Shown here piece by piece: positions 47,056 through 63,775 of a stretch of DNA of 64,000 nucleotides (its first letter is position 1; the number at the start of each line of letters is the position of its first letter). A model generated the notes under the pieces. The model was not told where the DNA came from. It ran no database searches and saw nothing but the letters and a program-made list of their open reading frames with translations. The position numbers were made by a program, and so were the translations under genes. Source of the DNA: Burkholderiales bacterium (GTDB lineage Bacteria; Pseudomonadota; Gammaproteobacteria; Burkholderiales; Burkholderiaceae_C); assembly GCA_019509985.1 (NCBI GenBank), contig JAEKLF010000037.1, positions 8,127 through 72,126 of the forward strand, written 5' to 3'.

Positions 47056-48840
47056 ATGCTGCTGATCCGTTTCGCCCTGGGCTTCTCGCTGTTCGAGACC
47101 CTGGTGCTGGCCGGCGTGCTGCTGGCCTGGGCCGACCGTGTGGCGGGCGGCCGGCTGCTGGCCGCGTTCCTGATCGGCATCGCGGTGTGGATCACCGGCA
47201 ACGAGCTGCCCAACTGGTTCGGCCTGGGCGCTGCACCCGTGGCGCTGCGGCTGATGGCCATGGCGCCGTTCGTGTCGGCGTTCTTCTTCCACTTCTGCGT
47301 GGTGTTCTGCCGCGTGCCGTTGGGCCGCGGCTGGGTGGTGGCGGGATACGCGCTGGGCGGCACGGCGTCGCTGTTGGCGCAGGTGTGGCGCGCCGCCGAG
47401 ATCGTCTGGTTCGAACCCATCGGCTGGATCGCCATCGCCGACCCGGTGGGGTGGGCCGCCAGCGTCGCCTGGATCGTGCTGGGCGTTGCCGGCGTGGCCG
47501 TGCTGCTGCGTGGCTTTGCGCAGGCGCAGCCGCCCGTACGGCAGCAGATCGCCGCGGTCACCGCGTCTTGCCTGTGGGGCCTGGTGTGCCTGAGCGGCTA
47601 CGGCCTGGTGCTGCTGCACCTGCCGGTCTACCCGGCGCCGCTGCTGCTGCTGCCGCTGTACCCGGTGATCCTGGTCTACGGCATCCTGCGCTGGGGCGTG
47701 TTCGTGGCCAACGCATGGGCCGGCCGCGCGCTGGTTTGGGCGCTGCTGCTGGCGGTGGGCGTGGCCATCGTGGCGCTGATGCCGCTGCTGCTGCCGTTCG
47801 AATCGCGCTGGCTCAACGGCCTGGCCGTGGCCGTCGGCTGCCTGGCGTTGAGCGGGCCGGTGCGGCGCTTCGTGCAGCGGCTGGTGTACCCCGGCGGCGA
47901 GGCCTCGGCCGCCGACCTGCAGGCCTGGCGCGAGGCGCTGCTGCCGGCTGAGACGCTGGATGAACTCGGCACGCGAGCCAACCAGCTGCTGAGCGCGCGT
48001 CTCGGCACGGCGGTCGAAGTCGTGTTCGATGCCGAAACGGCTCCCATACTGCCGCGCCTGAACTGCCACCGCGCGCCGTGGCGGCTGTCGTTGGAAGGCT
48101 GGTCCGCCGCGCCGCCGGGCCAGCGCCACCTGGCCGAGCTGTTCGGCAGCCTGGTGCTGGAGGCAGCCGTACGCGTGGAGCAAGCCCAGCAGCTGGCCGC
48201 CCGCGAGCGCGAGCGCCAGCTACAGGCGCGCTTGGCCGAACTGGGCGCGCTGGCCGCCACGGTGGCGCATGACATCCGCAACCCGCTGAACATCATCTCG
48301 ATGGCCGTGGCCACCGCCGATACCGACACCCGCCGCGAAGTGGCCGATCAGGTCGACCGCATCGCCCACCTGACGCGCGACCTGCTGGACTACGCCAAGC
48401 CGTGGAAGCTCAGCACCGCCGAGGTGGACGTGGCAGAGCTGGTGCGCCGTGTGGCGCGCCGCGCACCGGAGGTCGAGCTGGGCGCCGGCCTGCAGCAGCC
48501 GCTGCCGGCCACGCAGGACGCGCGCCGCGTGGAGCAGGCGCTGACCAACCTCGTCGAGAACGCGCGCACCGCCAGCTCCGGCGCCATCCACATCGACGCC
48601 GAGCGCGATGGCAGTCAGTTGAAACTGCACGTCTGCGACAACGGCCCCGGCGTGCCCGACGCCATCCGCGAGCGGCTGTTCGAACCCTTCGCGTCACGCA
48701 GCCCCGGCGGCACCGGGCTGGGCCTGGCCATCGTCGCGCGCGTGATGGCCGCGCACGGCGGCACGGCAGCCCTCACCGAGCGCCCGGGCTGGCGCACCTG
48801 CTTCACGCTGAGCTTCCCCGATGACACCCAACATCCCTGA
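47056..48840 (+). CDS. Membrane sensor histidine kinase (multi-TM N-terminus)
   Basis: About 8 TM segments, [28 protein letters not shown]. Confidence 0.88.
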
Positions 48841-50188
48841 AACCGGCCGCGTGATGCTGGTCGACGACGAGCCGGCGTTCCAGCGCCTGGGCGGCAACTT
48901 CCTTCGCAGCCTGGGCCACGAGGTGGACATCGCCGGCGACGGCGACGCGGCGCTGGCCCGCTTCGCCGAGCAGCGGCCCGAGCTGGTGCTGCTGGACCTG
49001 GCCATGCCGCCGCACATGGACCCCGAGCGCGGGCTGGAGCTGATCCCGCGGTTGGCCGGCGTGCCGGTCGTCGTGCTGACCGGGCACGGCGAGCACGAGC
49101 TGGCACTGCGCGCGGCGGAGCTGGGCGCGTGGGACTTCATCACAAAGCCCGTCGACCCCGACCTGTTGCGCTTCGTCGTCGCCCGCGCGCTGCGCAAGTC
49201 ACGGCTGGACGGCGAGCTGGTGCGCCTGCGCGCCGAACAAAGCACCGACGACCTGGGCCTGGTGGGGCAGACGCCGCCCATGCAGCAACTGCGCGCGATG
49301 GTGCGCCGCGTGGCGCCCACGCGCGTCAGCGTGCTGGTGCTGGGGCCTACGGGCACCGGCAAGGAGCTGGTGGCCCGCGCGCTGCACGACGGCAGCCCGC
49401 GCCGCGACGGGCCGTTCGTGGCCGTGCACTGCGGCGCGCTGTCGGCCGAGCTGCTGGAGAGCGAACTCTTCGGCCACCTGAAGGGCAGCTTCACCGGCGC
49501 CTACCGCGACCAGCCGGGTCTGGTGGAGGCCGCACACGGCGGCACGTTGTTCCTGGACGAGGTGGGCGAGATGCCCGCGGCCATGCAGGTCAAGCTGCTG
49601 CGCTTCTTGCAGGAGGGCAGCTTCGTGCCGGTGGGCGGTCGGGTGCAGAAGACCGCCGAAACGCGCGTGGTGGCCGCCACGCACCGCGACCTGGAGGCGA
49701 TGGTGCGCGACGGGGCATTCCGCGAGGACCTGTACTACCGCTTGAAGGGCGTGGTGCTACGCACGCCGCCGCTGGCCGAGCGCATGGCCGACGTGCCGGT
49801 GCTGGCCGCGCGCTTCCTGCAGCGCGTGGCGCCGCAGGCGCGCTTCTCGGCCGGGGCGCTGGCCTGGGTCACCGCGCGCGACTGGCCCGGCAATGTGCGC
49901 GAGCTGAAGGCCATCGTCGAGTCGGCCGGCGCGCTGCTACTGCCCGAGCAGAACGAGGTCGACACCGAACTGCTGCGCCTGGCCGCCGGCGACCACAGCG
50001 AGCCAACGCGCGCCGTCGAGCCGACCGCCAGCACCGGCGTGCTGGACGCGGCGCTGAACGAACTGGAGCGGCGGTTGATCCAGGACGCGATGAGCGCGGC
50101 CGGCGGCAACCAGTCCGAGGCCGCGCGGCAGCTTGGCGTGTCGCGCGTGGGGCTCATCAAGAAGCTCACGCGGCTGGGGCTACGCTGA
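48821..50188 (+). CDS. Sigma54-dependent NtrC-family response regulator
   Basis: REC domain (LVDDE, LLDLAMP), [23 protein letters not shown] (GAFTGA-like loop), [16 protein letters not shown], Fis-type HTH. Confidence 0.93.
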
Positions 50189-50548
50189 GCCGAACTCCTT
50201 CAACCACTGCCTGAGCTTTTTGCGCCCGTCGCTGTTGGTGCCGCGAAAGGCCTTGAGCGCCTGAGCGAGGAACTGCTGCTCGGCGGGCGTGAGGCCCGTC
50301 GGCTCGCGCTCCTCGTCGATCCAGCCGGCGGGCTTGGCGCAGTGGTGCTCGATCTGGCGCGCCAGCTTATCGCCGATGGGCCGGGCACCGCTCTTGGCCA
50401 TGGACCAGGTCGCGCCGCTGACGCCGATGCGCGCAGCCCAGGTGGCCTCCAGACCCTTGGGCGGGTCGCCCGCGGTGATGCGCTCCTCGGCGAAGCTCTG
50501 GAAGAGCGCGAGGGCGTTGAGCCGGCGGATGGCGGTGGGGCTGGACAC
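50180..50548 (-). CDS. Small HTH (XRE-like) protein, divergent from the tRNA/rtcB operon
   Basis: WAARIGVSGATWSMAKSGARPIGDKLARQIE...GWID resembles phage-repressor-type HTH domains; GTG start. Confidence 0.6.
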   Translation of the reverse strand: MSSPTAIRRLNALALFQSFAEERITAGDPPKGLEATWAARIGVSGATWSMAKSGARPIGDKLARQIEHHCAKPAGWIDEEREPTGLTPAEQQFLAQALKAFRGTNSDGRKKLRQWLKEFGSA

Positions 50549-50569
50549 GTGATGAGAGCGATCGACCGA

Positions 50570-50584
50570 GTGTTGTTAAAACAC
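50570..50584. promoter_or_regulatory. Palindromic operator candidate 1
   Basis: GTGTT-N5-AACAC. Confidence 0.45.
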
Positions 50585-50614
50585 TTCACAAGCATTCTAG
50601 GTGGTGCGCCGCGC

Positions 50615-50643
50615 TTGACCGCGACGTGAACAGTTTTCACAAT
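50615..50643 (+). promoter_or_regulatory. Sigma70-type promoter with overlapping palindromic operator
   Basis: TTGACC-N17-CACAAT; GTGAA-N5-TTCAC (50626-50640) overlaps the -10 box. Confidence 0.62.
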
Positions 50644-50714
50644 GCATGGATTCGCTCAACGCCGTTTGGCACTCGAACAACCCCCACCCGACCGAACCAC
50701 TTCCGCCCCCCGCC

Positions 50715-50894
50715 ATGAACCGCCACCTCTTCAACGTCATCGCACACCTCGGCTCTTCGAGCCGGCGCGATGGCGCCTGGATGGCGCCGGTCGAGGGACC
50801 GAAAGCGGAGGGCATGCAGCCCCAGGTCGCCTATGCCCACGACTGCGGTCGTGATCGTCATGACACCCACACATCGGGAGAAGGTCCCGGCTGA
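50715..50894 (+). CDS. Candidate leader peptide (59 aa; in-frame ATG also at 50646)
   Basis: Short ORF between the promoter and a terminator; stop is 23 nt before the terminator stem. Confidence 0.4.
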   Translation: MNRHLFNVIAHLGSSSRRDGAWMAPVEGPKAEGMQPQVAYAHDCGRDRHDTHTSGEGPG

Positions 50895-50917
50895 CGCCGC
50901 CCTTCCACGCTCTTCTG

Positions 50918-50958
50918 AGGCCCGGTATCCGCAAGGAACCGGGCCTTTTGTTTTGTTT
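50918..50958 (+). terminator. Intrinsic terminator / attenuator
   Basis: AGGCCCGGT-a-TCC-GCAA-GGA-ACCGGGCCT followed by TTTGTTTTGTTT. Confidence 0.85.
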
Positions 50959-51085
50959 CCGCCGCCGGGGCTGCCTCGGTGCCGCTGCGCAAGCGCAGCG
51001 CCTGCTCTTTCACAACTTGCATCGAGTGCCCGCCGACCACATCGGCGCGGCGCTCAAACTGGCAGGCGCCGAGGTTCGTCCTCGG

Positions 51086-51232
51086 CGGCCCTGCCCCATC
51101 TCGGGTGTGCCCACGCACAAGCATCGGCCGGCCCGGTGTGCATGTGCGCTCGGGCGGCCGCCTGTCGCGTGCAGCGACGCATCACTGGCTCGCGCAGGCC
51201 GGTCGCGTCGCGTGTGGACACAGCCGAGATGG
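51086..51232 (+). ncRNA. Candidate structured ncRNA with paired ends
   Basis: CCATCTCGG(g)TGTG pairs with CACA(g)CCGAGATGG; several internal hairpins; no convincing ORF. Confidence 0.4.
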
Positions 51233-51243
51233 ATTTGCCTTTT

Positions 51244-51318
51244 GCCCCGTTGGACTTCCGGTGAGGTCCTCGGCCCTTCAAGCCGAAGAGGCGGGTTCAA
51301 CTCCCGCACGGGGCACCA
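51244..51318 (+). tRNA. tRNA-Glu(TTC)-like, atypical C33
   Basis: GCCCCGT/ACGGGGC acceptor, GAC/GTC D stem, TCGGC-CCTTCAA-GCCGA anticodon arm, 4-nt variable loop, GCGGG-TTCAACT-CCCGC, encoded CCA. Confidence 0.8.
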
Positions 51319-51422
51319 GACCCTTCAACCCGAAGTCCCTCGTTGAGCTCACGCCCCGAGGGACGCAAACCGGCCGCAACGATTGGGCGGCGTCGGAACC
51401 CGTCACCGACAACCTTTCCCGT

Positions 51423-51499
51423 CCGGGCGTAGCTCAGCCAGGTAGAGCATCTGCTTTGGGAGCAGAGGGTCGCACGTTCAACTCGTGTCACCCGGACCA
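51423..51499 (+). tRNA. tRNA-Pro(TGG)
   Basis: TAGCTCAGCCAGGTAGAGC D arm, TCTGC-TTTGGGA-GCAGA, GCACG-TTCAACT-CGTGT, ACCA end; one C:A mismatch in the acceptor stem. Confidence 0.88.
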
Positions 51500-51509
51500 A
51501 CCATTTCAT

Positions 51510-51585
51510 GTCGCCATAGCTCAGCTGGGAGAGCGCCGGTCTGTCGAACCGGAGGTCGCGGGATCGAGGCCCGCTGGCGGCGCCA
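51510..51585 (+). tRNA. tRNA-Asp(GTC), atypical T loop
   Basis: GTCGCCA/TGGCGGC acceptor, CCGGT-CTGTCGA-ACCGG, T loop ATCGAGG instead of TTCRANY, GCCA end. Confidence 0.82.
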
Positions 51586-51692
51586 CATTTTTCTCCTGCG
51601 TGTTGTGCCACGTAGCCGTCCGGCTGCGCACCCGCATGCAACAGTCGGAGCACCGCTCCATCCACCGTGCCAGCCCAGGAAAGGAGGTCACC

Positions 51693-52253
51693 ATGCACGA
51701 CGTTTTGCAGTTGGACATCACCGGCCTTCCGCAGGCCTGGATCTCGGTGGAGGACGCCGCCGGCCTCGTGGCCACCGACTCGGTGGTCTGGTCAGCCGGC
51801 GAGCGGCCACTGGCCGTGCTGCGGGGCGGCTTCAACACCGTTACCGGCCGCCAGTCGATGCTGGAGGTGCCGCCCATCGTGGCCCTGCGCGGCGTGTCGA
51901 GGATAAACCTCTTCGACCTGACGCCGACCTTCAGCAAGCTCAAGGTCATCAAGCGTGACCGTTGCACCTGCGCCTATTGCGGCGACGTGTTCGACCTGCG
52001 TTCACTGACCGTGGACCACATCCAGCCCGACAGCCGCGGTGGGTCCTTAAGCTGGATGAACACGGTCGCGGCCTGCCGCAGCTGCAACATGCTGAAGGCC
52101 GACCGCACGCCGGACGAGGCCCGCATGCCGCTGCTGTTCGCGCCGTTCGTGCCCAGCCGCTTCGAGGACTTCATCCTCAAGGGCCGGCACATCCGCGCGG
52201 ACGTGCACGACTGGCTGGCTGCGCGCCTGCCGAAAGGATCTCGCCTCAGCTGA
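51693..52253 (+). CDS. HNH endonuclease
   Basis: AGGAGG RBS; RDRCTCAYCG...TVDHIQPDSRGG...WMNTVAACRSCNMLKADR. Confidence 0.92.
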   Translation: MHDVLQLDITGLPQAWISVEDAAGLVATDSVVWSAGERPLAVLRGGFNTVTGRQSMLEVPPIVALRGVSRINLFDLTPTFSKLKVIKRDRCTCAYCGDVFDLRSLTVDHIQPDSRGGSLSWMNTVAACRSCNMLKADRTPDEARMPLLFAPFVPSRFEDFILKGRHIRADVHDWLAARLPKGSRLS

Positions 52254-52383
52254 GGCGACAACGAATCTGCCGAGGAAAGCAGAGCGCTCACAGGTCGGGG
52301 TTTCGAAGCCCCACCGGTGCGCCAGGACCGGGTCCGCCCGTCGTCTCGGCGTATGCCGCCCCTGCCGGAATCGACGGATAGCC

Positions 52384-52438
52384 CGTGAGGCAAGGTTGAG
52401 CCGCAAGGCATTGGGTTCGATTCCCAACTTCACGACCA
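52384..52438 (+). ncRNA. tRNA-like mini-RNA (acceptor stem + T arm + CCA, no anticodon arm)
   Basis: CGTGAGG/CTTCACG 7-bp stem, A-CCA, TTGGG-TTCGATT-CCCAA, GCC-GCAA-GGC hairpin in place of the D and anticodon arms. Confidence 0.6.
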
Positions 52439-52439
52439 C

Positions 52440-52506
52440 TGGATAGCTCAGTCGGGTAGAGCAACGAACTAGTAGTTCGTCTGTCGCGGGTTCGACTCCC
52501 GCTCCA
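52440..52506 (+). pseudogene. Pseudo-tRNA (anticodon AGT) with broken acceptor stem and no CCA
   Basis: GCTC-AGTCGGGTA-GAGC, ACGAA-CTAGTAG-TTCGT, GCGGG-TTCGACT-CCCGC; only 4 acceptor pairs (TGGA/TCCA). Confidence 0.65.
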
Positions 52507-52772
52507 AAGCTTGGCCTTGAACGCCAATCCAAAACCGGTCGCAAGACCACCCGCCGAACGTGCGCCCCGGCCTTGGCCGGACCCGCGCATCAGCGGCCCG
52601 CGCTCGCGCGCCGGGCAAGCGGGGCTCTGCAACCACGGCCAGCCGAGAGCGTCTTCAGGGAGGAGGCGCTCGACGCGCACCGTGGCGCCAGGCCCTGGCA
52701 TCCGACGTCCGCACGGGTTGCTGTAACGGCACCCTCATCCCCATCACCACGCGTCACCACAAGGAGAACACC

Positions 52773-53909
52773 ATGACGATCAAGCGTGTGGCTGTGAAGA
52801 AGAACGAGCGCGGCATCCTGCTGCGCAATGGCGATTTCGAGCGCGTGCTGCAACCCGGCACGCACTGGCTGTTCGCCGGGCTGGACGAGCTGAAGGTGGA
52901 GCTGTTTGCCATCAGCCAGCCGGCCTTCGTGCACCTGCTGACCGACTACCTGCTGGCCAAGGAGCCCGCAGTCGTCGAGGCGGAGTTCCTGCGCGTCGAG
53001 CTGAACGAACACCAGGCGGGCCTGCGCACCGAGAACGGCGTGCTGGTCGAAGTGCTGCCGCCCGCCACGCGGCGCCTGTACTGGCGCGGCCTGGTGGACG
53101 TGCAGGTCGAGGTGATCGACCTGCGTGCGTCCGTCGAACTGCCCGCGGCCGTGGCCGCACGTCTGGCCCAGCCGCAACTGCGCCCGCGCGCGGTGACCGG
53201 CCTGGCCGGCGTGCTGCAGGTCGAGGTGCCGGAAACCGGCGCCGGCCTTCTGCGCGTGGACGGCAAGGTGGAGCGACTGCTGACCGCGGGTGCTTACGCC
53301 TTCTGGCGGTTCAACCGCAACGTGACGGTGGAGCTGGTGGACCTGCGGCTGCAGGCGCTGGAAGTGACGGGCCAGGAAATCCTGACCCGTGACAAGGTGG
53401 CGCTGCGGCTCAACCTGTCGGCCAACTGGCGCTACACGGACGTGCTGCGCGCGTTCGAGCAGTTGGCCAAGCCGGCCGACCACCTCTACCGCGAGCTGCA
53501 GTTCGGCCTGCGCGCAGCGGTGGGCACGCGCACGCTGGACGAGCTGCTGGAGAACAAGTCGGTCATCGACGAGGTCGTGACCGCCCAAGTGACGTCCAAG
53601 CTGGCCGGCTACGGCCTGCAGTTGGACGGCGTGGGCGTGAAGGACATCGTGCTGCCAGGCGAGATGAAGACCATCCTCGCCCAGGTGGTGGAGGCCGGCA
53701 AGGCTGCCGAAGCCAACGTGATCCGCCGCCGCGAGGAAACCGCGGCGACGCGTTCCCTGCTCAACACGGCCAAGGTGATGGAGGACAACCCCGTCGCCCT
53801 GCGCCTGAAGGAGCTGGAAACGCTGGAACGCGTGGCCGAGCGCATCGACAAGATCTCCGTGTTCGGAGGTCTGGACCAGGTGCTCAACGGGCTGGTGAAG
53901 CTCCGTTGA
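52773..53909 (+). CDS. Slipin (SPFH/band-7) family protein
   Basis: AAGGAG RBS; GQEILTRDKVALRLN, RAAVGTRTLDELL, RRREETAATRSLLNTAKVMEDNP..LRLKELE. Confidence 0.9.
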   Translation: MTIKRVAVKKNERGILLRNGDFERVLQPGTHWLFAGLDELKVELFAISQPAFVHLLTDYLLAKEPAVVEAEFLRVELNEHQAGLRTENGVLVEVLPPATRRLYWRGLVDVQVEVIDLRASVELPAAVAARLAQPQLRPRAVTGLAGVLQVEVPETGAGLLRVDGKVERLLTAGAYAFWRFNRNVTVELVDLRLQALEVTGQEILTRDKVALRLNLSANWRYTDVLRAFEQLAKPADHLYRELQFGLRAAVGTRTLDELLENKSVIDEVVTAQVTSKLAGYGLQLDGVGVKDIVLPGEMKTILAQVVEAGKAAEANVIRRREETAATRSLLNTAKVMEDNPVALRLKELETLERVAERIDKISVFGGLDQVLNGLVKLR

Positions 53910-53959
53910 GTGCCGCCCTGCCGGCTCGGCCGGCAGGGCTCCAACTCAAAGGAGAACCC

Positions 53960-54736
53960 ATGACTACGCCGTCATTGCAATCGGCCGTGCGGCGCGCCTA
54001 CGAAGTGTTCGGCGCCTACGCGGCACCCACCCAGCCGCTGGACGTCTGCACGTTCTGCTGCATGGACGAAGAACTGGAGCGCGAGATGCGCGCCGTGCCG
54101 TTGCGCAAGCTGAAGCGCCTGCACTTCTACGAGTACAGCACCGGCGCCAAGTCCGTCGATGGCCAGCCGGCCGACGAGGTGAAGTACCTGCTGCCACGCC
54201 TGCTCGAACTGCTGGCGGCCGGCGAGGAAACCCACCACTCGATCGAGCTGGCGCTGGATCGCGTGGGGCGCTGCCACGCCGGTGCCTTCAGCAACGAAGA
54301 GCGGGCCGTGCTCGACGCCTTCATGCTGGCCTGCTTTGACGCCTGCCTGCGCGGCGAGTGGGTGGCCGAGGACTTCTGGTACGACCTCGAAGACCCGCTC
54401 GCGCTGCTGGTGATGGCCGACTACGCCGGCCTCTCGCTGGCACCGTTGCTGCAGCACTGGACTGAACACCCGAGCCCGCAATCCACGATCCGCTTCGTCG
54501 AAAGCACCTACTGGGGTTTCTGGTCCAAGCACAAGATCACCAACGCCTTCGCGACCAACCGGCCGCGGCTGCAGGCAGTCTTCAAGGACTGGACGCTGTC
54601 GCTCGACACCAAGGCGGCCTTCACCATGAAGCTGCTGCTCCCTCATTTCCTGGATCAGGTCGAACAGACACCGTCCAACACCTGCGCGCCCTTCCCCGTG
54701 ATGGTGGACGCTGTGTTCGACCACCTGACCTACTGA
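53960..54736 (+). CDS. Hypothetical protein
   Basis: AAAGGAG RBS; CTFCC cluster, KYLLPRLLEL; co-oriented between slipin and rtcB. Confidence 0.7.
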   Translation: MTTPSLQSAVRRAYEVFGAYAAPTQPLDVCTFCCMDEELEREMRAVPLRKLKRLHFYEYSTGAKSVDGQPADEVKYLLPRLLELLAAGEETHHSIELALDRVGRCHAGAFSNEERAVLDAFMLACFDACLRGEWVAEDFWYDLEDPLALLVMADYAGLSLAPLLQHWTEHPSPQSTIRFVESTYWGFWSKHKITNAFATNRPRLQAVFKDWTLSLDTKAAFTMKLLLPHFLDQVEQTPSNTCAPFPVMVDAVFDHLTY

Positions 54737-54750
54737 TAGAAAGAACAATC

Positions 54751-55014
54751 ATGGAACCCCAACACATCCACGAAGACGTCCCCGGCGGCGTGCCACTGAA
54801 GATGTGGACGCAAGGCGTGCCAGTCGAAGACTCGGCCAAGCGCCAGCTGCAGAACGCGGCCCGCCTGCCCATCGTCTTCAAGCACATCGCCGCGATGCCC
54901 GACGTGCACTTCGGCATCGGCGCCACCGTCGGCTCGGTCATCCCCACCGTCAAGGCCATCATCCCGGCTGCGGTCGGTGTGGACATCGGCTGTTCTTCCG
55001 ACATCCACTTGTAA
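54751..55014 (+). pseudogene. rtcB: RtcB RNA ligase, 5' fragment interrupted at the DIGC motif
   Basis: LPIVFKHIAAMPDVHFGIGATVGSVIP...IIPAAVGVDIGC, then unrelated SSDIHL*; no rtcB remainder found in the window. Confidence 0.9.
54979..55008. other. Candidate recombinase core/attachment site (left junction)
   Basis: GTGGACATCGG-CTGTTCTT-CCGACATCCAC: 11-bp imperfect inverted arms (9/11) around an 8-bp spacer, exactly at the rtcB breakpoint. Confidence 0.6.
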
Positions 55015-55118
55015 CCCCATCCCGAAGCATGTAGGCTCCGCCCCCGAACAACGGGAACGAGTAGCCCCAGCCTCTTTTAGAGGCGAGTAGCCCTCCGCCC
55101 CACCGAGCAGGAGGAAGG

Positions 55119-55430
55119 GTGGCCATTCAGCGCAGATCGTTCGGAGTTGCCGTATTGGAGCGGCTGCGGGCCACCGCATGCACCACGGCCTTCGGGCGGT
55201 TGGATGGCCACTTCAAGCGCGATTCAACGTTCATCCCAACAAAGGACCCCAACACTGAGCGGTGGCACTGTTCCACCTCAAAGGGTGAGTGCGAGCTGCT
55301 GGTCAATGGCCCAAAGTGGTACGACACCAGAACCCGGGAGGGTGGAGGTGGCTCGATTGATCTAGCGATGCAGTTGTACCGACTCGACTTCGTCGATGCG
55401 GTGAACCTCTTGGTGGGCAGGGGCCTATGA
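55119..55430 (+). CDS. Small conserved-looking protein, first gene of the recombinase module
   Basis: AGGAGG RBS before GTG; KWYDTR..GGGGSIDLAMQL...DFVDAVNLL recalls the primase zinc-binding-domain tail; ATGA overlap with the next gene. Confidence 0.6.
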   Translation: MAIQRRSFGVAVLERLRATACTTAFGRLDGHFKRDSTFIPTKDPNTERWHCSTSKGECELLVNGPKWYDTRTREGGGGSIDLAMQLYRLDFVDAVNLLVGRGL

Positions 55431-56611
55431 ACCTCTACTTCAGCACCAAGGACTTTGCAGTCGACGGTCAGCACTACGAAGGCTTCCCGATTCTCGTGGA
55501 CGCCTCGGGTGCAGTTGTTGAGGTCGCCCTGCTCTTCTTCGTGGACGACCTCCTCAACCGCGGTGGCGCGCGAGACCTGAAAACGTGGGCTGCCTATGGC
55601 CGGCACATGTACGACTACTTCGGCTACCTGGAGCAGCGTCTGGCCTGGGATCACATCCCAGCTGAGGGTAGTGGACAGCTCTCACCACTAGCTGCCTACG
55701 TGCGATGGTGCGACACCGACGTCCGCAATGCTCCTGGCTACGTCAACGACAAGCGCGCGACCATCGAGCGCTTCTACGAATGGGCAAAGCGGGTCGGGCG
55801 CATTGATGAGCTGCCCTTCACCCGAAGTGAAGTCATTTCATCTAGCGCTGATGGGGTGCTTGCGCACGCCTCGGCAACTCGAGGCCGACGGTCGGCGTCC
55901 AACCTGCATCTGCCTGAGAACGACGACGACGTGCCAGACATGGTGCTGTCGCGTGGCCAGATCGACGCAGCGTTTGAACACGCGACGAATCCAACGCACC
56001 GTGCCGTCCTGCACCTGAGCCTGAATGCCGGGCTGAGAGCGGAGGAGCTCGCGACGTTCCCGATGAAGTACGTCGTCGACACCAGCAGGCTATCGCCCAA
56101 GGTGAAGACGGTGCCCGTGACCCTTGATCCGAAGGACATGCACACCAAGAACGACAAGAAGCGAACAGTGCGACTGTCGGTGCGGTGCATGAACCTGCTC
56201 TGGCAGTATCGAGAGGCCGTTAGGCCACGACTGAGGGCTCGGGCGAAGGGAGGCCCCGCCGACAGCGGAGTGCTGCTCCTGACCCGGTTTGGCGTGCCAT
56301 TCGTCGCCGACGGCTTCGTGTCACCCATGGCGCGCCTAGGGAAGCGTGCTGGATTCCACATCCACCCGCACATGCTCAGGCATACGTTTGCCACCCATAC
56401 GCTAGCCTCCCTCGAGGACTTGAAGCGTGCCGGCAGGCTCAGGAGCTCGCCGCTCGTGGTTCTCAAGCGTCTTCTGGGCCATTCGAAGACAACCAACACA
56501 GAACGCTACCTGCATCTGCTGGATTCAATCGAGGACGTCTACGGCACCCGCTACCAAGCGGAGATTGACGAGTTGGCGCTGGGGTATCTGAACGAGGCAG
56601 AGAAGAAGTAG
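55427..56611 (+). CDS. Tyrosine recombinase 1
   Basis: NAGLRAEEL (R), HPHMLRHTFA (HxxR), LLGHSK (H), TERYLH (Y). Confidence 0.92.
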   Translation: MNLYFSTKDFAVDGQHYEGFPILVDASGAVVEVALLFFVDDLLNRGGARDLKTWAAYGRHMYDYFGYLEQRLAWDHIPAEGSGQLSPLAAYVRWCDTDVRNAPGYVNDKRATIERFYEWAKRVGRIDELPFTRSEVISSSADGVLAHASATRGRRSASNLHLPENDDDVPDMVLSRGQIDAAFEHATNPTHRAVLHLSLNAGLRAEELATFPMKYVVDTSRLSPKVKTVPVTLDPKDMHTKNDKKRTVRLSVRCMNLLWQYREAVRPRLRARAKGGPADSGVLLLTRFGVPFVADGFVSPMARLGKRAGFHIHPHMLRHTFATHTLASLEDLKRAGRLRSSPLVVLKRLLGHSKTTNTERYLHLLDSIEDVYGTRYQAEIDELALGYLNEAEKK

Positions 56612-58219
56612 ATGGCGAAGAAGAAGGACTTCGGGGTCGGAGGGCCGCCACCGAAGCCGGTGATCCCCATTTTCCCGACGAGTAGGACGCTCGAACGTGC
56701 GGCCGTGAGCGCTCTCGTGATCCCGCTACCTCATGGCGTCGACGCGGAGTTCGATTGGTGGGAGTACCTCGGGCATGGGTTCGATGACACGGTGTCGGCT
56801 ATCACGTTGGAGATGCGCGCCATGGTTGCGCGCGGCAGACCGAAGCCCTTGGCCTTGAAAACCATCGCCAACGGCGGCGTGATTCACTGGTTCAGGTTCT
56901 GCGTTGAGCGCGCCTCTGCGGGCACACCACCGACGTTGGACAGCATCAACGCCGAGACGATTGAGGTCTTTGCCGGTTGGCTCGCGACCCGTTTGAAGCC
57001 CGACGGCGAGCTGTGGTCGTTGAACACTGCGCGGACGGTCTACCAGAAGGTCAAGACCGTGCTGGAGGCACTTGCAGATCGCAAACTGCTGCCAAGGGAT
57101 GGGCTGTTTCCTAAGAACCCTTTCCCGGGGGCCACTGACATCAACCGGCGCCGCAACCACATACTGCCTCTGTCTGATGGCGAACGAGAGCGCATCCTCC
57201 GCCCGCTGGCGATGCAGGTTGCCCAGGTGTACGACGGCACCCACCCCGGCACACCGTCGACGCAATTGGGGCTGTGCGTCTTTGCCATCTTCTTGAAGAC
57301 CGGCGTCAACCCCACCCCGTTCCTCGAAATCCCTCGGGACCTGCAGAAGTGCTTCATGAGTCATCCGCGCGTGAACACGAGGATTCTGGTGACCTTCAAG
57401 CGCCGGGCGAACAAGCGCACCAAGACGCCGCTGGAGCCTGAGTCTCGGGTGGTGTCGCTGGACGTCTATAAGCTCTGTGAGCGCGTTCTGGGCCTCACCG
57501 AGGGTGCGGCCAAGCTGGCGGTTGGCACGAAGCTGGAGGGCTTGCTGTGGGTCTACGAGCTCGATGGTGCACCCCGTGGCATGACGACCGAGACGCTGAG
57601 CGCCGTCGCCAACGCATTCACGTCGCGTCACGCCCTTGTGCGCGACGACGGCACCCGCCTGAAGATGAGCAGCCAGCTCTTCCGCAACACCAAGCTCAAT
57701 CGCGTCTGGCGAGCGTCCAAGGGCGACCTGCTCGCAACGGCGCGAAGCGGATCGAACACGCCGACTGCCGCTCAGCGATACCTCGCAGTCACTCCCGACA
57801 TGCTCGACGAACATCGCATGGCAGGCGAGGTGCTGGTGGACACCCTGTCGGCTGCCGGCCCGAGGGACAACACGCCGCACAGCGGCTGCAAGGATGCCTT
57901 CAACGGCGAGTTCGCGCCGAAGGACGGCTCGCCTTGTGTCGACTTCCTCTCGTGCTTCCGATGCAAGTCTCAGGTCATCATCCAGGACGACCTCTACAAG
58001 CTGTTCTCGTTCTATTGGGCGCTGTTTTCGCAGCGGAGCCACATTGGCCAAGACAACTGGCGCAAGCTCTTCGGCTGGGTCACGAGGGTGATTGACCGCG
58101 ACATCGCGCCGAAGTTCGATGCGACGGTCGTGGAACGAGAGAGGGCTCGCGCCCGCTCCGAACCACACCCGATGTGGCGGTCTCCGTCGGTCTTAGCTGC
58201 ACTGAGGTCCATCCAATGA
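56612..58219 (+). CDS. Tyrosine-recombinase-fold protein 2 with degenerate catalytic residues
   Basis: KTGVNPT (N at the usual R), QLFRNT, GSNTPTAAQRYL; C-terminal Cys cluster CKD..C..FLSCFRC; starts directly after the upstream stop. Confidence 0.7.
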   Translation: MAKKKDFGVGGPPPKPVIPIFPTSRTLERAAVSALVIPLPHGVDAEFDWWEYLGHGFDDTVSAITLEMRAMVARGRPKPLALKTIANGGVIHWFRFCVERASAGTPPTLDSINAETIEVFAGWLATRLKPDGELWSLNTARTVYQKVKTVLEALADRKLLPRDGLFPKNPFPGATDINRRRNHILPLSDGERERILRPLAMQVAQVYDGTHPGTPSTQLGLCVFAIFLKTGVNPTPFLEIPRDLQKCFMSHPRVNTRILVTFKRRANKRTKTPLEPESRVVSLDVYKLCERVLGLTEGAAKLAVGTKLEGLLWVYELDGAPRGMTTETLSAVANAFTSRHALVRDDGTRLKMSSQLFRNTKLNRVWRASKGDLLATARSGSNTPTAAQRYLAVTPDMLDEHRMAGEVLVDTLSAAGPRDNTPHSGCKDAFNGEFAPKDGSPCVDFLSCFRCKSQVIIQDDLYKLFSFYWALFSQRSHIGQDNWRKLFGWVTRVIDRDIAPKFDATVVERERARARSEPHPMWRSPSVLAALRSIQ

Positions 58220-60099
58220 GCGCTGCCCTGGCCTATGAGCTACATGCGGCTGCGTTGGAGCTGTCGCCGGCGGAGCGAGACGACCTCGTCATCTCGTACG
58301 TTCAGCTGGCGGGCGGCGAGCGCATTCCGCTCTCTCGCTACGGTGACCCCGTCTGGAACTACACGCCATTCTTCCCCGGCGCAGCCCGCGGCAAGCAGGA
58401 CAAGGAGATTGTCTGGGCCAAGACTCCTGACGAGTGGGTTCCGTCGATGCGAAGCGCAGCCGCTGCGCTCACATACCGCAAAGCTCCTGGCGGTGTCCGA
58501 CTGGACCCGTCGACGATCCCCAAACGGCACGTCATCCTGAATGCCTTCGCGAAGTGGGCCAGCTCAGAAGGCATCAGGCGCTTCGGCGACGTCCGCGCTG
58601 CCGACTTGACCAGGTACATCCAGAAGCTTCGCGACGACGGTCTCTACGACCGTAGCCTGGCCAGCCACATTGCCATCCTGCGCAAGGTACACGAGCTTCG
58701 GGGAGCAATGCTCGACAGCTTGACCGACGAAGCTGCGACCGCGCTGCGGTTTGACCAGCTCGGCGCGCTCTGGGAGCCTGACGCGGTCAACGACCGCCGT
58801 ACTGAGCTCATCCCGCTCGCTGAGGCGTCAGCATTGTTCGTGGCCGCCAGAGAGCACCTGACCAGGGCACCAACCCTACTGCGTCTGCGTGACGACCTGG
58901 CTGAACAGTGGGAGGCCGCAAAGGTCACCTGGGACCGGAGGGTATGGGGTGACGACGTCAAGAAGCCGGCGGTGCGAGCTGCTGGCTTCCGAGACGCCCT
59001 TGAGTTCGAGTCCGCCGTCAGTGACATCCGGACTGCGGCCTACATCGTCCTCGGCATCACCACGGGTTGCCGCGTCCATGAGCTTGGCGAGGCGGAGGTG
59101 GGCTGCGTCTATCCGGACACGGTCGACGGTGAGACGTATTGGTGGCTGAAGGCCGCGACGCGCAAGATCGGCGACGGACCGATGCGTTGGCTGGCACCTG
59201 AAGTGGCCAAAGAGGCCTCCGACGCCCTCGAATGGCACTCTGCCCCCTTGCGAGCCCGCATCGCCGCTGAGCTGCCTGTCATGCGAGAGCAGTTCACAAC
59301 CGCAACCACAGAAGCGGAAAGAGCCAGGCTGGCGGCGCATATTCTTGAGCTTGAGCGCAATGCCGACCGCTTGTTCCTGAGCGAGTCGACGCGGGGCGTT
59401 GTCTCAACCGACACCAAGTCGCACAACAAGCAACTAAAGGCCTTCGCTGCACGCAAGGGCATCAAGCTCGGCGTGCCGCTTGCCACCCACCGGTTCCGCC
59501 GCACCTACGCCGTTATCGTCGTGCATCTGAACAAGGGGCCGCGCATCGACATGGTGACGCTGCAGCGCCACTTCAAGCACGCGAGCGTGCTCATGACGGA
59601 GTGGTACGCCGAGCTGTCCGAGACCGACAGGGAGCTCTACGAGCTCATCGAGACGGAGACAGGCTTCTTCGACATGGCGCTGGTCGACCACTGGCTGGAT
59701 GGATCGACGCCGCTGGCCGGCGGCCTGGGTGCCCGAATCAAGGCGTACGCAGGCAAGCATCACCAGCCCATCTTCTTCAAGACCCGGCGCGAGTTCGTTG
59801 ACAGCATCCGGGAGGGCATCAACATCCGGAGCACAGGGCACAGCTGGTGCCTGGCAGAGGCGAAGGACTGTGGCGGGCAAGGGCTTTTCGATGCTCCCCA
59901 GTGCGGCAGTTGCGGCAACGGCGTCATCGACGACAACTTCCGAGAGGTGTGGCAGAACCTTCGTCAGGACCACGAGGACTTGTCCAAGCTCGACGACATT
60001 GGGCCTGGCGGCAGGGCAAAGGCGGCGAAGGGCCTCGCAGCGGCCGAAGCCGTCCTCGCACAGCTTGAACAACCTGACGACGAGACCGCCGATGTCTGA
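58216..60099 (+). CDS. Tyrosine recombinase 3
   Basis: TTGCRVHEL, THRFRRTYA, HFKHASVLMTEWYA; C-terminal Cys cluster; ATGA overlap with the previous gene. Confidence 0.88.
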   Translation: MSAALAYELHAAALELSPAERDDLVISYVQLAGGERIPLSRYGDPVWNYTPFFPGAARGKQDKEIVWAKTPDEWVPSMRSAAAALTYRKAPGGVRLDPSTIPKRHVILNAFAKWASSEGIRRFGDVRAADLTRYIQKLRDDGLYDRSLASHIAILRKVHELRGAMLDSLTDEAATALRFDQLGALWEPDAVNDRRTELIPLAEASALFVAAREHLTRAPTLLRLRDDLAEQWEAAKVTWDRRVWGDDVKKPAVRAAGFRDALEFESAVSDIRTAAYIVLGITTGCRVHELGEAEVGCVYPDTVDGETYWWLKAATRKIGDGPMRWLAPEVAKEASDALEWHSAPLRARIAAELPVMREQFTTATTEAERARLAAHILELERNADRLFLSESTRGVVSTDTKSHNKQLKAFAARKGIKLGVPLATHRFRRTYAVIVVHLNKGPRIDMVTLQRHFKHASVLMTEWYAELSETDRELYELIETETGFFDMALVDHWLDGSTPLAGGLGARIKAYAGKHHQPIFFKTRREFVDSIREGINIRSTGHSWCLAEAKDCGGQGLFDAPQCGSCGNGVIDDNFREVWQNLRQDHEDLSKLDDIGPGGRAKAAKGLAAAEAVLAQLEQPDDETADV

Positions 60100-63531: not shown

Positions 63532-63775
63532 GTGTCGCCCTCAAGCTGTATAGAACCGGATGCTACGAGACCGCCTGCTAGAGTCAGCCTTGAAGCCGGC
63601 GTTGCCGGCTTTCCTGCTTTTCCTCCCTGAGCAGGAGCTTCGGCTCGATGACAGCGACGAGGCTTTGCCGCCCCGGCATGTCCGGGGCGTTCTTTTTGGC
63701 CGACGCGCGGCCCGAGAAGCTGGCCTCCGCATGCCGCTTAACAGCCGTGTTACATTTTTCCTAGGGGGGAGAAAA

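Follow-up and report, generated by a model that had tools for sequence, protein, structure and literature searches.

How bacteria sense that translation is failing, and then induce spare tRNAs or RNA repair, is only partly understood. This question is raised by a short segment (positions 50715-50958) of the 64,000-nt stretch of DNA analysed here (the window, which is G+C-rich betaproteobacterial DNA), in which a small open reading frame (ORF) and a strong intrinsic terminator, T, precede a tRNA array and the genes of an HNH endonuclease, an SPFH protein and RtcB. In ribosome-coupled attenuation, slowed translation of a leader switches on the downstream genes, and the preliminary description of the segment had proposed a mechanism of this kind: a strand at the end of the ORF, AGGTCCCGG, would compete with the 5' arm of T for the 3' arm CCGGGCCT, normal translation would mask this competitor, and stalled ribosomes would give read-through into the tRNA and rtcB genes. 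Here, we show that 1) the architecture of leader and operon is real, conserved and undescribed, our literature search having found no paper that describes the module, and 2) as judged from sequence and predicted folding, the gate is not run by the proposed strand competition, and the mechanism as first stated is refuted. Our preferred reading, held with moderate confidence, is that a conserved leader of ~300 nt, structured and translated, has its body and 3' end in this segment and finishes in a terminator that lies inside the operon.

Orthologues of a 122-amino-acid (122-aa) regulator, searched in genomes sampled one per species, led to 42 related loci, and the same cassette is kept in 40 related loci of Sphaerotilaceae, spread over Roseateles, Pelomonas, Mitsuaria, Ideonella, Inhella, Piscinibacter, Rubrivivax and Rhizobacter. 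The cassette runs from a repressor-type promoter (P1) through the ~300-nt structured leader with its ORF, a hairpin (H1), T, a boxA element (in most clades) and a structured RNA that we call S to the tRNA array and the HNH, SPFH and RtcB genes. The unit ending in the same terminator measures 255-334 nt among the related loci, and beyond it come a spacer, S, a tRNA array that varies between species, the HNH gene and, often, the SPFH and RtcB genes; none of the 40 loci holds the cassette without an array. Below, group A denotes the clade of the window; it was compared with a separate clade, group B, with the Inhella, Piscinibacter and Rubrivivax clades and with the loci L022, L039 and L041.

P1 is the sole consensus sigma-70 site in 49500-53000, and likewise the sole array-directed consensus promoter between the regulator gene and the HNH gene in three further loci (L025, L043 and L022). 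Because no other promoter is recognisable, T comes to lie inside the operon; a strong terminator thus separates this promoter from the tRNA, HNH, SPFH and rtcB genes, and expression of these genes would need read-through. T consists of a 5' arm AGGCCCGG (50918-50925), inner TCC/GGA pairs, a GCAA loop (50931-50934), the 3' arm CCGGGCCT (50939-50946) and a U-tract TTTTGTTTTGTTT reaching to 50958, that is, a G+C-rich hairpin followed directly by a U-tract, as in intrinsic (Rho-independent) terminators. The minimum-free-energy fold of 50860-50960 leaves it intact (-39.7 kcal/mol, z score -2.8). Among the homologues, 98.8% of its alignment cells are paired and two pairs show compensatory change (U-A to A-U in 8 of 19 sequences, A-U to G-C in 5 of 19), and in L022, where ~10 nt separate the U-tract from S, the hairpin has 13 pairs, eight of them G-C. 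The segment therefore shares with attenuators a short ORF between promoter and structural genes and an intrinsic terminator after that ORF.

H1, with a lower stem GAAGG:CCUUC and an upper stem CGGC:GCCG, is also backed by covariation. Its lower stem changes from A-U to G-C in 7 of 19 sequences and from G-C to A-U in 2 of 19. Taken together over 19 sequences from four clades, the lower stem and T have 98.1% of cells paired and four pairs changed on both sides, compared with only 29-69% of cells paired in a control with the partner slid. In group B the hairpin has 10 bp, 98% paired, with four compensatory pairs, and an equivalent hairpin with the stop codon at or beside its apex is present in every clade. 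Its 5' arm resembles a Shine-Dalgarno sequence (GGGAGAGGG or GGGUGAAGG) and its 3' arm reads CCCUCC or CCUUCC in all loci, and the stop codon lies in or beside the apical loop, 5-7 nt past the purine run, in all of them. A search of Rfam at the gathering threshold and at E up to 10 returned over H1 and T only a chance-level match of 15.7 bits to a betaproteobacterial toxic small RNA.

The ORF itself was confirmed by direct reading: as first described, it has 59 codons and ends 22-23 nt before the GCAA-capped terminator (23 nt from the stop to A50918). A mechanical ORF list extends the same frame up to an ATG at 50646, which sits only 3 nt past the P1 -10 element, making 50715 the plausible start. 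An ORF is found at the same place in every locus having promoter and terminator (~40 loci of several genera), starting at a homologous (A/G)TGAA motif. It comprises 54-59 codons in group A and 47-56 in group B. The Inhella, Piscinibacter and Rubrivivax clades have ORFs of 59-60 codons, L039 has the longest (69) and L041 the shortest (35), yet over this range of 35-69 codons the start motif and the stop are always in frame, and the stop is kept as TGA, TAG or TAA at one structural position. In a frame-blind nucleotide alignment, each of the four indels within the ORF of group A has a length divisible by three (-6, -15, +3 and -3), compared with ~1 of 12 outside it, in the 5' untranslated region (UTR) and between stop and terminator (Fisher p = 0.0027); the 5' UTR differs in length by 1-7 nt among species. 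In the Rubrivivax clade an AAGGA Shine-Dalgarno sequence stands 7 nt before a GTG start. The G+C content at the three codon positions (GC1/2/3) is 0.71/0.56/0.73, and GC2 falls below GC1 and GC3 in the ORF frame only. These alignments indicate that the reading frame and the position of the stop are under selection and that the peptide sequence is hardly constrained, and we infer that the ORF is translated. Since a frame is kept around a free peptide, hairpins lie within the ORF, the start region is partly sequestered in predicted leader folds and the stop is fixed at the H1 apex, the leader suggests that it is the act of translation that matters.

Three further ideas about the ORF were tried and dropped. 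The ratio of nonsynonymous to synonymous substitution (dN/dS) is flat across frames and was replaced as a coding test by the indel and frame comparison. The C-terminal third of the ORF is rich in Tyr, His, Asp and Arg codons and in rare A/T-ending codons; these codons sit in RNA stems, and a match between leader codons and array tRNAs is uninformative, as the arrays span ~13 amino acids. An ArfA-like rescue factor, encoded by a small ORF with a hairpin at its end, fits poorly, the peptides being neither lysine- nor arginine-rich and H1 being too short for RNase III.

The strand AGGTCCCGG is indeed present at 50882-50890, as direct reading confirmed, and no other upstream strand in group A pairs better with the T 3' arm: the duplex has 9 bp and a single bulge, at -16.5 to -17 kcal/mol, and the base of the strand that varies (codon 58) is the bulged one. 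Its near-duplication of the terminator 5' arm is, however, within chance and lost outside one clade: the duplex with the 3' arm reaches -17.0 kcal/mol, against -13.9 ± 1.9 in dinucleotide shuffles, 10% of which are equal or better (2-10% over such comparisons). Three of the eight pairs of the proposed helix are broken in 8-9 of the 19 sequences, which amounts to every clade outside group A. Group B and L022 have no such partner; their best partner of the 3' arm is weaker than most shuffles (z -0.4 to +1.6, mostly positive) and inconsistent in position. Moreover, AGGTCCCGG is already taken up as the 5' arm of the covarying H1. Duplex energies of each arm of T against the whole upstream leader, computed for 21-27 homologues with dinucleotide shuffles as reference, yielded no classical antiterminator that was significant or consistent in position; the 5' arm of T has no upstream partner that beats shuffles (z -1.3 to +1.5, best positions scattered).

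To model masking by ribosomes, transcripts truncated ahead of the 3' arm were folded by partition function, with the ribosome placed on the stop codon or upstream of it by 8, 14 or 20 codons. The sole recurrent partner of the T 5' arm in the folds of truncated transcripts was a 4-5-bp contact in the 5' UTR, and none of the four placements altered the pairing of that arm. In agreement with these folds, a ribosome stalled upstream would let H1 form and a ribosome at the stop would hold AGGTCCCGG inside itself, T forming either way. The topology would also be kinetically weak, for a copy of the 5' arm would have to contest the 3' arm, whereas in known attenuators the partner captures the 5' arm first. 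A 6-bp antiterminator, (A/C)(U/C)CGGG:CCCGGU, was rejected because its CGGG belongs to an extended H1 stem and it ranks first among the partners in no more than 3 of 17 sequences. The leader thus showed no antiterminator and terminator pairings that exclude each other, and as no alternative pairing is conserved or dependent on state, we regard H1 and T as hairpins that form locally and independently.

The leader and S are both transcribed. The RNA data consist of assembled contigs without strand, several of which belong to related strains or to runs whose type is uncertain. Ten runs hold isolated contigs of 170-230 nt within 50667-50967, most of these runs being metatranscriptomes of different studies, while the type of a few is a guess. 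Some of the contigs match the window exactly; none reaches into the regulator gene, and all stop at or before ~50967. Contigs of related strains cover the spacer and S (50967-51221 and 50993-51232) or S and tRNA-Glu (51063-51295), and in two runs of uncertain type contigs start in or just after the 3' half of T and run into S. In run X22, the HNH, SPFH and 276-aa protein genes have contigs, and most of the other 20 kb examined have none.

Under our preferred reading, the leader transcript would be made from P1, whose -10 element is overlapped by a palindrome that the CI-like regulator presumably binds. Ribosomes would translate the short ORF up to the stop in the apical loop of H1, and T, ~10 nt beyond H1, would act as a gate, with transcripts that stop there corresponding to the short leader RNA of the metatranscriptomes. 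Only by reading through would polymerases reach boxA, S, the tRNA array and the HNH, SPFH and rtcB genes. Control would then have two layers, the repressor at P1 serving as the main on/off switch and T setting the amount that passes. The simplest reading of the order P1-leader ORF-H1-T-boxA-S-tRNAs-HNH-SPFH-rtcB is a single unit.

Several observations weigh against this picture. The T hairpin of L039 lacks a good U-tract, and a non-consensus promoter between T and S is possible. In X22, RNA depth over the downstream genes is similar to that over the leader, and T may therefore be leaky or bypassed by an undetected promoter. The contigs, besides being strandless, may derive in part from DNA and are prone to break at hairpins, and they give no measure of read-through. 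As for the ORF, its GC3 (0.73) is below that of the neighbouring genes (0.87-0.94), group A has no Shine-Dalgarno sequence before it, and the ratio of nonsynonymous to synonymous polymorphism (pN/pS) is 0.81 in the ORF frame against 0.84 and 0.83 in the wrong frames, so that the ORF frame is not singled out; nucleotide diversity is likewise flat over codon positions (0.215, 0.227 and 0.196). This G+C-rich region has few stop codons in any of its three frames, and an open frame alone therefore means little. Finally, the conserved peptide blocks coincide with RNA hairpins, namely H1 and the two that lie within the ORF (Table 1), the downstream one of which explains the conserved residues HD.GR; much of the conservation is therefore at the RNA level.

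Foremost among the alternatives, and one that we hold only tentatively, is that translation of the ORF controls read-through of T by a route other than strand competition, in which case translational stress or tRNA damage would open the way to back-up tRNAs and RtcB. The put RNA of phage HK022 makes RNA polymerase terminator-resistant, and ribosomes might unfold a leader fold that does the same; alternatively, they might overrun the stop and block T, or translation might shield the C-rich 5' UTR from Rho. A frame kept around a free peptide is the pattern of a regulatory upstream ORF, and the hairpins within the ORF, the partly sequestered start and a stop always placed at the H1 apex point in the same direction, as do the induction of HNH- and RtcB-adjoining tRNA arrays by ribosome-targeting antibiotics in Anabaena (PMC8421152, PMC10272220) and the response of E. 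coli and Salmonella rtcBA to damaged tRNA (PMC7790460). None of the routes has positive support, however, and the predicted pairing shows no state-dependent change. The frame past the stop is open to or through the T 5' arm in 39 of 40 loci, as overrunning would require, but the other two frames are open likewise, which makes this geometry unspecific and the open frame uninformative; a sensor based on stop-codon read-through was rejected on the same ground. Moreover, the sensor in Anabaena is the level of a repressor rather than an attenuator (PMC10272220), and a repressor-type promoter could explain all of the regulation here. That the leader senses translation is, on the features of its sequence, plausible.

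A bolder version, which we consider somewhat unlikely, would make the leader a novel kind of sensor of translation capacity, serving an operon of back-up tRNAs and RNA-repair genes and operating with no classical antiterminator hairpin. Ribosomes on an ORF free in sequence would keep the leader unfolded, or would end at the stop in the hairpin apex; when translation fails, through ribosome inhibitors or cleaved tRNAs, the leader would refold or the stop would be overrun, and polymerase would pass T. Beyond T it would pick up Nus factors at boxA and transcribe S, the tRNAs and the HNH, SPFH and RtcB genes.

Less likely again is that the leader is a gene in its own right, either the mRNA of a small protein or a trans-acting small RNA, the array being served by a separate, unrecognised promoter. 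It has its own promoter and terminator, the 22-37 nt between its stop and the terminator are what an ordinary gene end would show, its RNA contigs are short and isolated, its 5' region is C-rich and partly conserved, and one contig (run X57) begins at 50967, just past T. However, no second promoter was found in the four loci searched (the window, L025, L043 and L022), L022 leaves no room for one, and the cassette is never apart from an array in 40 loci. The peptide has no family match in Pfam and shows no purifying selection, which disfavours a protein, and a frame constraint speaks against a purely non-coding RNA, since a small RNA acting in trans from its own promoter to its own terminator would have no frame to keep, and the indels here respect one.

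We judge it similarly improbable that the ORF is a chance feature, that is, that the leader is a structured non-coding RNA whose open frame is a by-product of G+C-rich sequence and hairpins. The scarcity of stops in every frame, the equal pN/pS values, the mapping of conserved residues to stems, the low GC3 and the missing Shine-Dalgarno sequence of group A would all fit. They are opposed by indels that are multiples of three inside the ORF and not in its flanks, by a variation of 35-69 codons with start motif and stop in frame, by a stop kept in three spellings, by the Shine-Dalgarno sequence of one clade and by a GC2 below GC1 and GC3 in the ORF frame only. Weakest is the competition of AGGTCCCGG with the T 5' arm for CCGGGCCT, which the shuffles, the other clades, H1 and the masking folds leave very improbable.

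Table 1. Features of the leader, its promoter region and the downstream genes in the window.
Feature	Position	Strand	Remarks
122-aa divergent regulator gene, CI/Cro-like helix-turn-helix	50180..50548	-	ORF; GTG start without Shine-Dalgarno sequence
Operator-like palindrome O1	50575..50589	.	GTTAA-N5-TTCAC here, GTGAA-N5-TTCAC in relatives; conserved in 40-locus alignment
Promoter P1, TTGACC-17 nt-CACAAT	50615..50643	+	sigma-70 consensus; conserved in all loci
Operator-like palindrome O2, GTGAA-CAGTT-TTCAC	50626..50640	.	overlaps P1 spacer and -10
C-rich 5' UTR of leader transcript (start predicted from -10)	50649..50714	+	RNA contigs begin 50667-50675
Leader ORF, 59 codons + TGA	50715..50894	+	ATG 50715, TGA 50892-50894
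Conserved ORF-internal hairpin CGUCAUCG...CCGGCUC-N3-GAGCCGG...CGAUGGCG	50735..50775	+	RNAalifold, 16 group-A leaders; several pairs take 2-4 pair types
Conserved ORF-internal hairpin CACGAC-N4-GUCGUG	50838..50853	+	RNAalifold, 16 group-A leaders (alignment pairs 199-214)
Hairpin H1	50878..50906	+	lower stem 50880-84:50901-05, upper stem 50888-91:50896-99, loop UGAC with stop codon
Intrinsic terminator T, 10+3 bp stem, GCAA loop, U-tract	50917..50958	+	stem 50917-50947; 13 pairs
GC hairpin, boxB position	50983..51000	+	directly before boxA; conserved in group A
boxA-like element TGCTCTTTCACAA	51003..51015	+	conserved in group A, L033, L038, L039
S, 135-nt nearly invariant structured RNA	51097..51231	+	directly before first tRNA
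tRNA array: Glu(UUC) 51244-51318, Pro(UGG) 51423-51499, Asp(GUC) 51510-51585	51244..51585	+	
HNH endonuclease gene	51693..52253	+	Pfam HNH and HNH_5, E about 2e-13; found in almost every related locus
tRNA-Thr(AGU)-like gene	52437..52510	+	two acceptor-stem mismatches, no encoded CCA
SPFH/Band-7 protein gene	52770..53909	+	Pfam PF01145, E=2.9e-30
276-aa protein gene	53906..54736	+	no Pfam match
rtcB, first 81 codons only	54751..54993	+	tblastn with L005 RtcB: 98.8% identity over residues 1-81

Upstream of the leader, the regulator gene is divergent from P1 in nearly all 42 loci, which also carry GTGAA-N5-TTCAC palindromes, one of them over the P1 -10 element. The 122-aa protein has no Pfam match, and a profile of 17 orthologues matches the phage repressor CI (7nkv, E=0.0025). 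O1 and O2 are 15-bp palindromes, O1 upstream of the regulator gene and O2 over the P1 -10, with a third copy in some clades; by their sequence and placement they are probably the operators of the 122-aa CI/Cro-like protein. Main on/off control is probably exerted at P1 through this repressor, which would bind there. The regulator gene starts with GTG or ATG without a Shine-Dalgarno sequence, and a leaderless mRNA is possible.

Downstream of T, boxA suits the leader of a long untranslated RNA operon that needs protection from Rho, as rrn antitermination illustrates. The element TGCTCTTTCACAA agrees with the boxA consensus UGCUCUUUAACAA of stable-RNA operon leaders; it matches the E. coli rrn boxA TGCTCTTTAACAA (PMC2176067, PMC2724277) at 12 of 13 bases and is the only such site in the 64-kb window, where 0.02 would be expected. 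A second promoter considered at the TTTCACAAC block after T is better explained as this boxA. S is nearly invariant over genera whose regulators share only 55-75% identity; its predicted fold has an 18-bp closing stem and three inner hairpins, with little covariation because the sequence hardly varies, and no Rfam family matches it.

The tRNAs of the array differ by species (Arg, Tyr, Glu, Trp, Pro, Asp, His, Leu, Ala, Cys, Gly and Gln). Those of the window are unusual: tRNA-Glu(UUC) carries a C in place of the near-universal U33 (anticodon loop CCUUCAA), as it does in relatives, and the tRNA-Asp of the window has an odd T-loop (AUCGAGG). In L037, from an Ideonella metagenome-assembled genome, a natural deletion ~150-350 nt from the regulator start has taken out H1, T and the spacer, so that mid-ORF sequence runs straight into the 3' half of S; a tRNA-Arg gene follows directly, and P1 is the only upstream signal left for the array. 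An assembly artefact is possible there. In the window, rtcB is broken after codon 81 (GVDIGC) within the region 54751-60099 by an insert with three tyrosine-recombinase genes in a row (55427-56611, 56612-58219 and 58174-60099; phage-integrase domains in the first and third), which, by its gene content, looks like a mobile element of the recombinase-trio type. No part of rtcB past residue 81 was found by tblastn anywhere in the window.

The genes that flank the module vary from genome to genome, and the module therefore behaves as an island; it was not found in IMG/VR viral contigs. Genes for a histidine kinase and a sigma-54-dependent response regulator (47056-50188) adjoin it in the window, L010 and L013. 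Their adjacency is probably functionally irrelevant, since it is absent from most other loci. Apart from tRNAs, the Rfam search otherwise returned only a match to the Burkholderia anti-hemB small RNA (RF02837) at 63611-63697, with 56.1 bits, above the gathering score.

In cultivable betaproteobacteria (Roseateles, Pelomonas), this conserved locus is compact enough to serve as a test bed for the question. Even if the gate were only a fixed partial terminator, the reading as a hairpin competition would still be wrong, and the conserved "peptide" blocks would still be RNA stems.

Among known systems, the Salmonella rsr-yrlBA-rtcBA operon and the RtcR-controlled rtcBA operons resemble the module in that they unite RtcB in one transcript with structured non-coding or tRNA-like RNAs and have a link to tRNA damage, RtcR sensing nicked tRNAs in enterobacteria (PMC7790460). 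They differ in that no Y RNA family came up in our Rfam search and no RtcR, RtcA or Ro is encoded among the neighbouring genes; here, the promoter has the look of a sigma-70 type under a repressor, and the rtcB of the window is broken. The rrn-type boxA leaders, which work through NusB/NusE, likewise place boxA after a hairpin and before long untranslated RNA genes. In the rrn operons, however, boxA comes directly after the promoter, whereas here the element, identified as a sequence match, comes after both a presumably translated ORF and an intrinsic terminator and is degenerate in group B.

Leader-peptide attenuators of the trp, his, phe and pheST type and the antibiotic-responsive attenuators of the upstream-ORF and terminator kind seen by Term-seq have in common with this locus the order of promoter, short ORF, intrinsic terminator and structural genes; in them, too, the peptide sequence matters little and the downstream genes serve translation. 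The defining feature of trp- and antibiotic-type attenuators is a pair of mutually exclusive hairpins. Here, by contrast, there are no such hairpins and no clear run of regulatory codons, the ORF is long (35-69 codons), the stop sits in a hairpin of its own, clear of the terminator, and the genes controlled are tRNAs and RNA-repair genes.

The closest biological system is the inducible tRNA array of Anabaena, of a type that is silent during standard growth, whose array, HNH gene and rtcB are induced by ribosome-targeting antibiotics via repeats over the -10 element, HNH and RtcB being conserved neighbours of inducible tRNA arrays (PMC8421152), and whose repressor TrcR falls in amount under the same stress (PMC10272220). 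The present arrays are much shorter than the described L-arrays (3-8 tRNAs against 23-43) and belong to a betaproteobacterial lineage, and their regulator is CI/Cro-like where TrcR is a ribbon-helix-helix protein. The leader ORF with its terminator, the boxA and the S RNA are further differences; a term search of the main Anabaena array paper found no mention of a leader ORF or terminator. The module shares with the Anabaena trn operon the grouping of extra tRNA genes into one operon next to HNH and RtcB, repressor-type repeats over the -10 element, a variable content and a horizontally mobile look.

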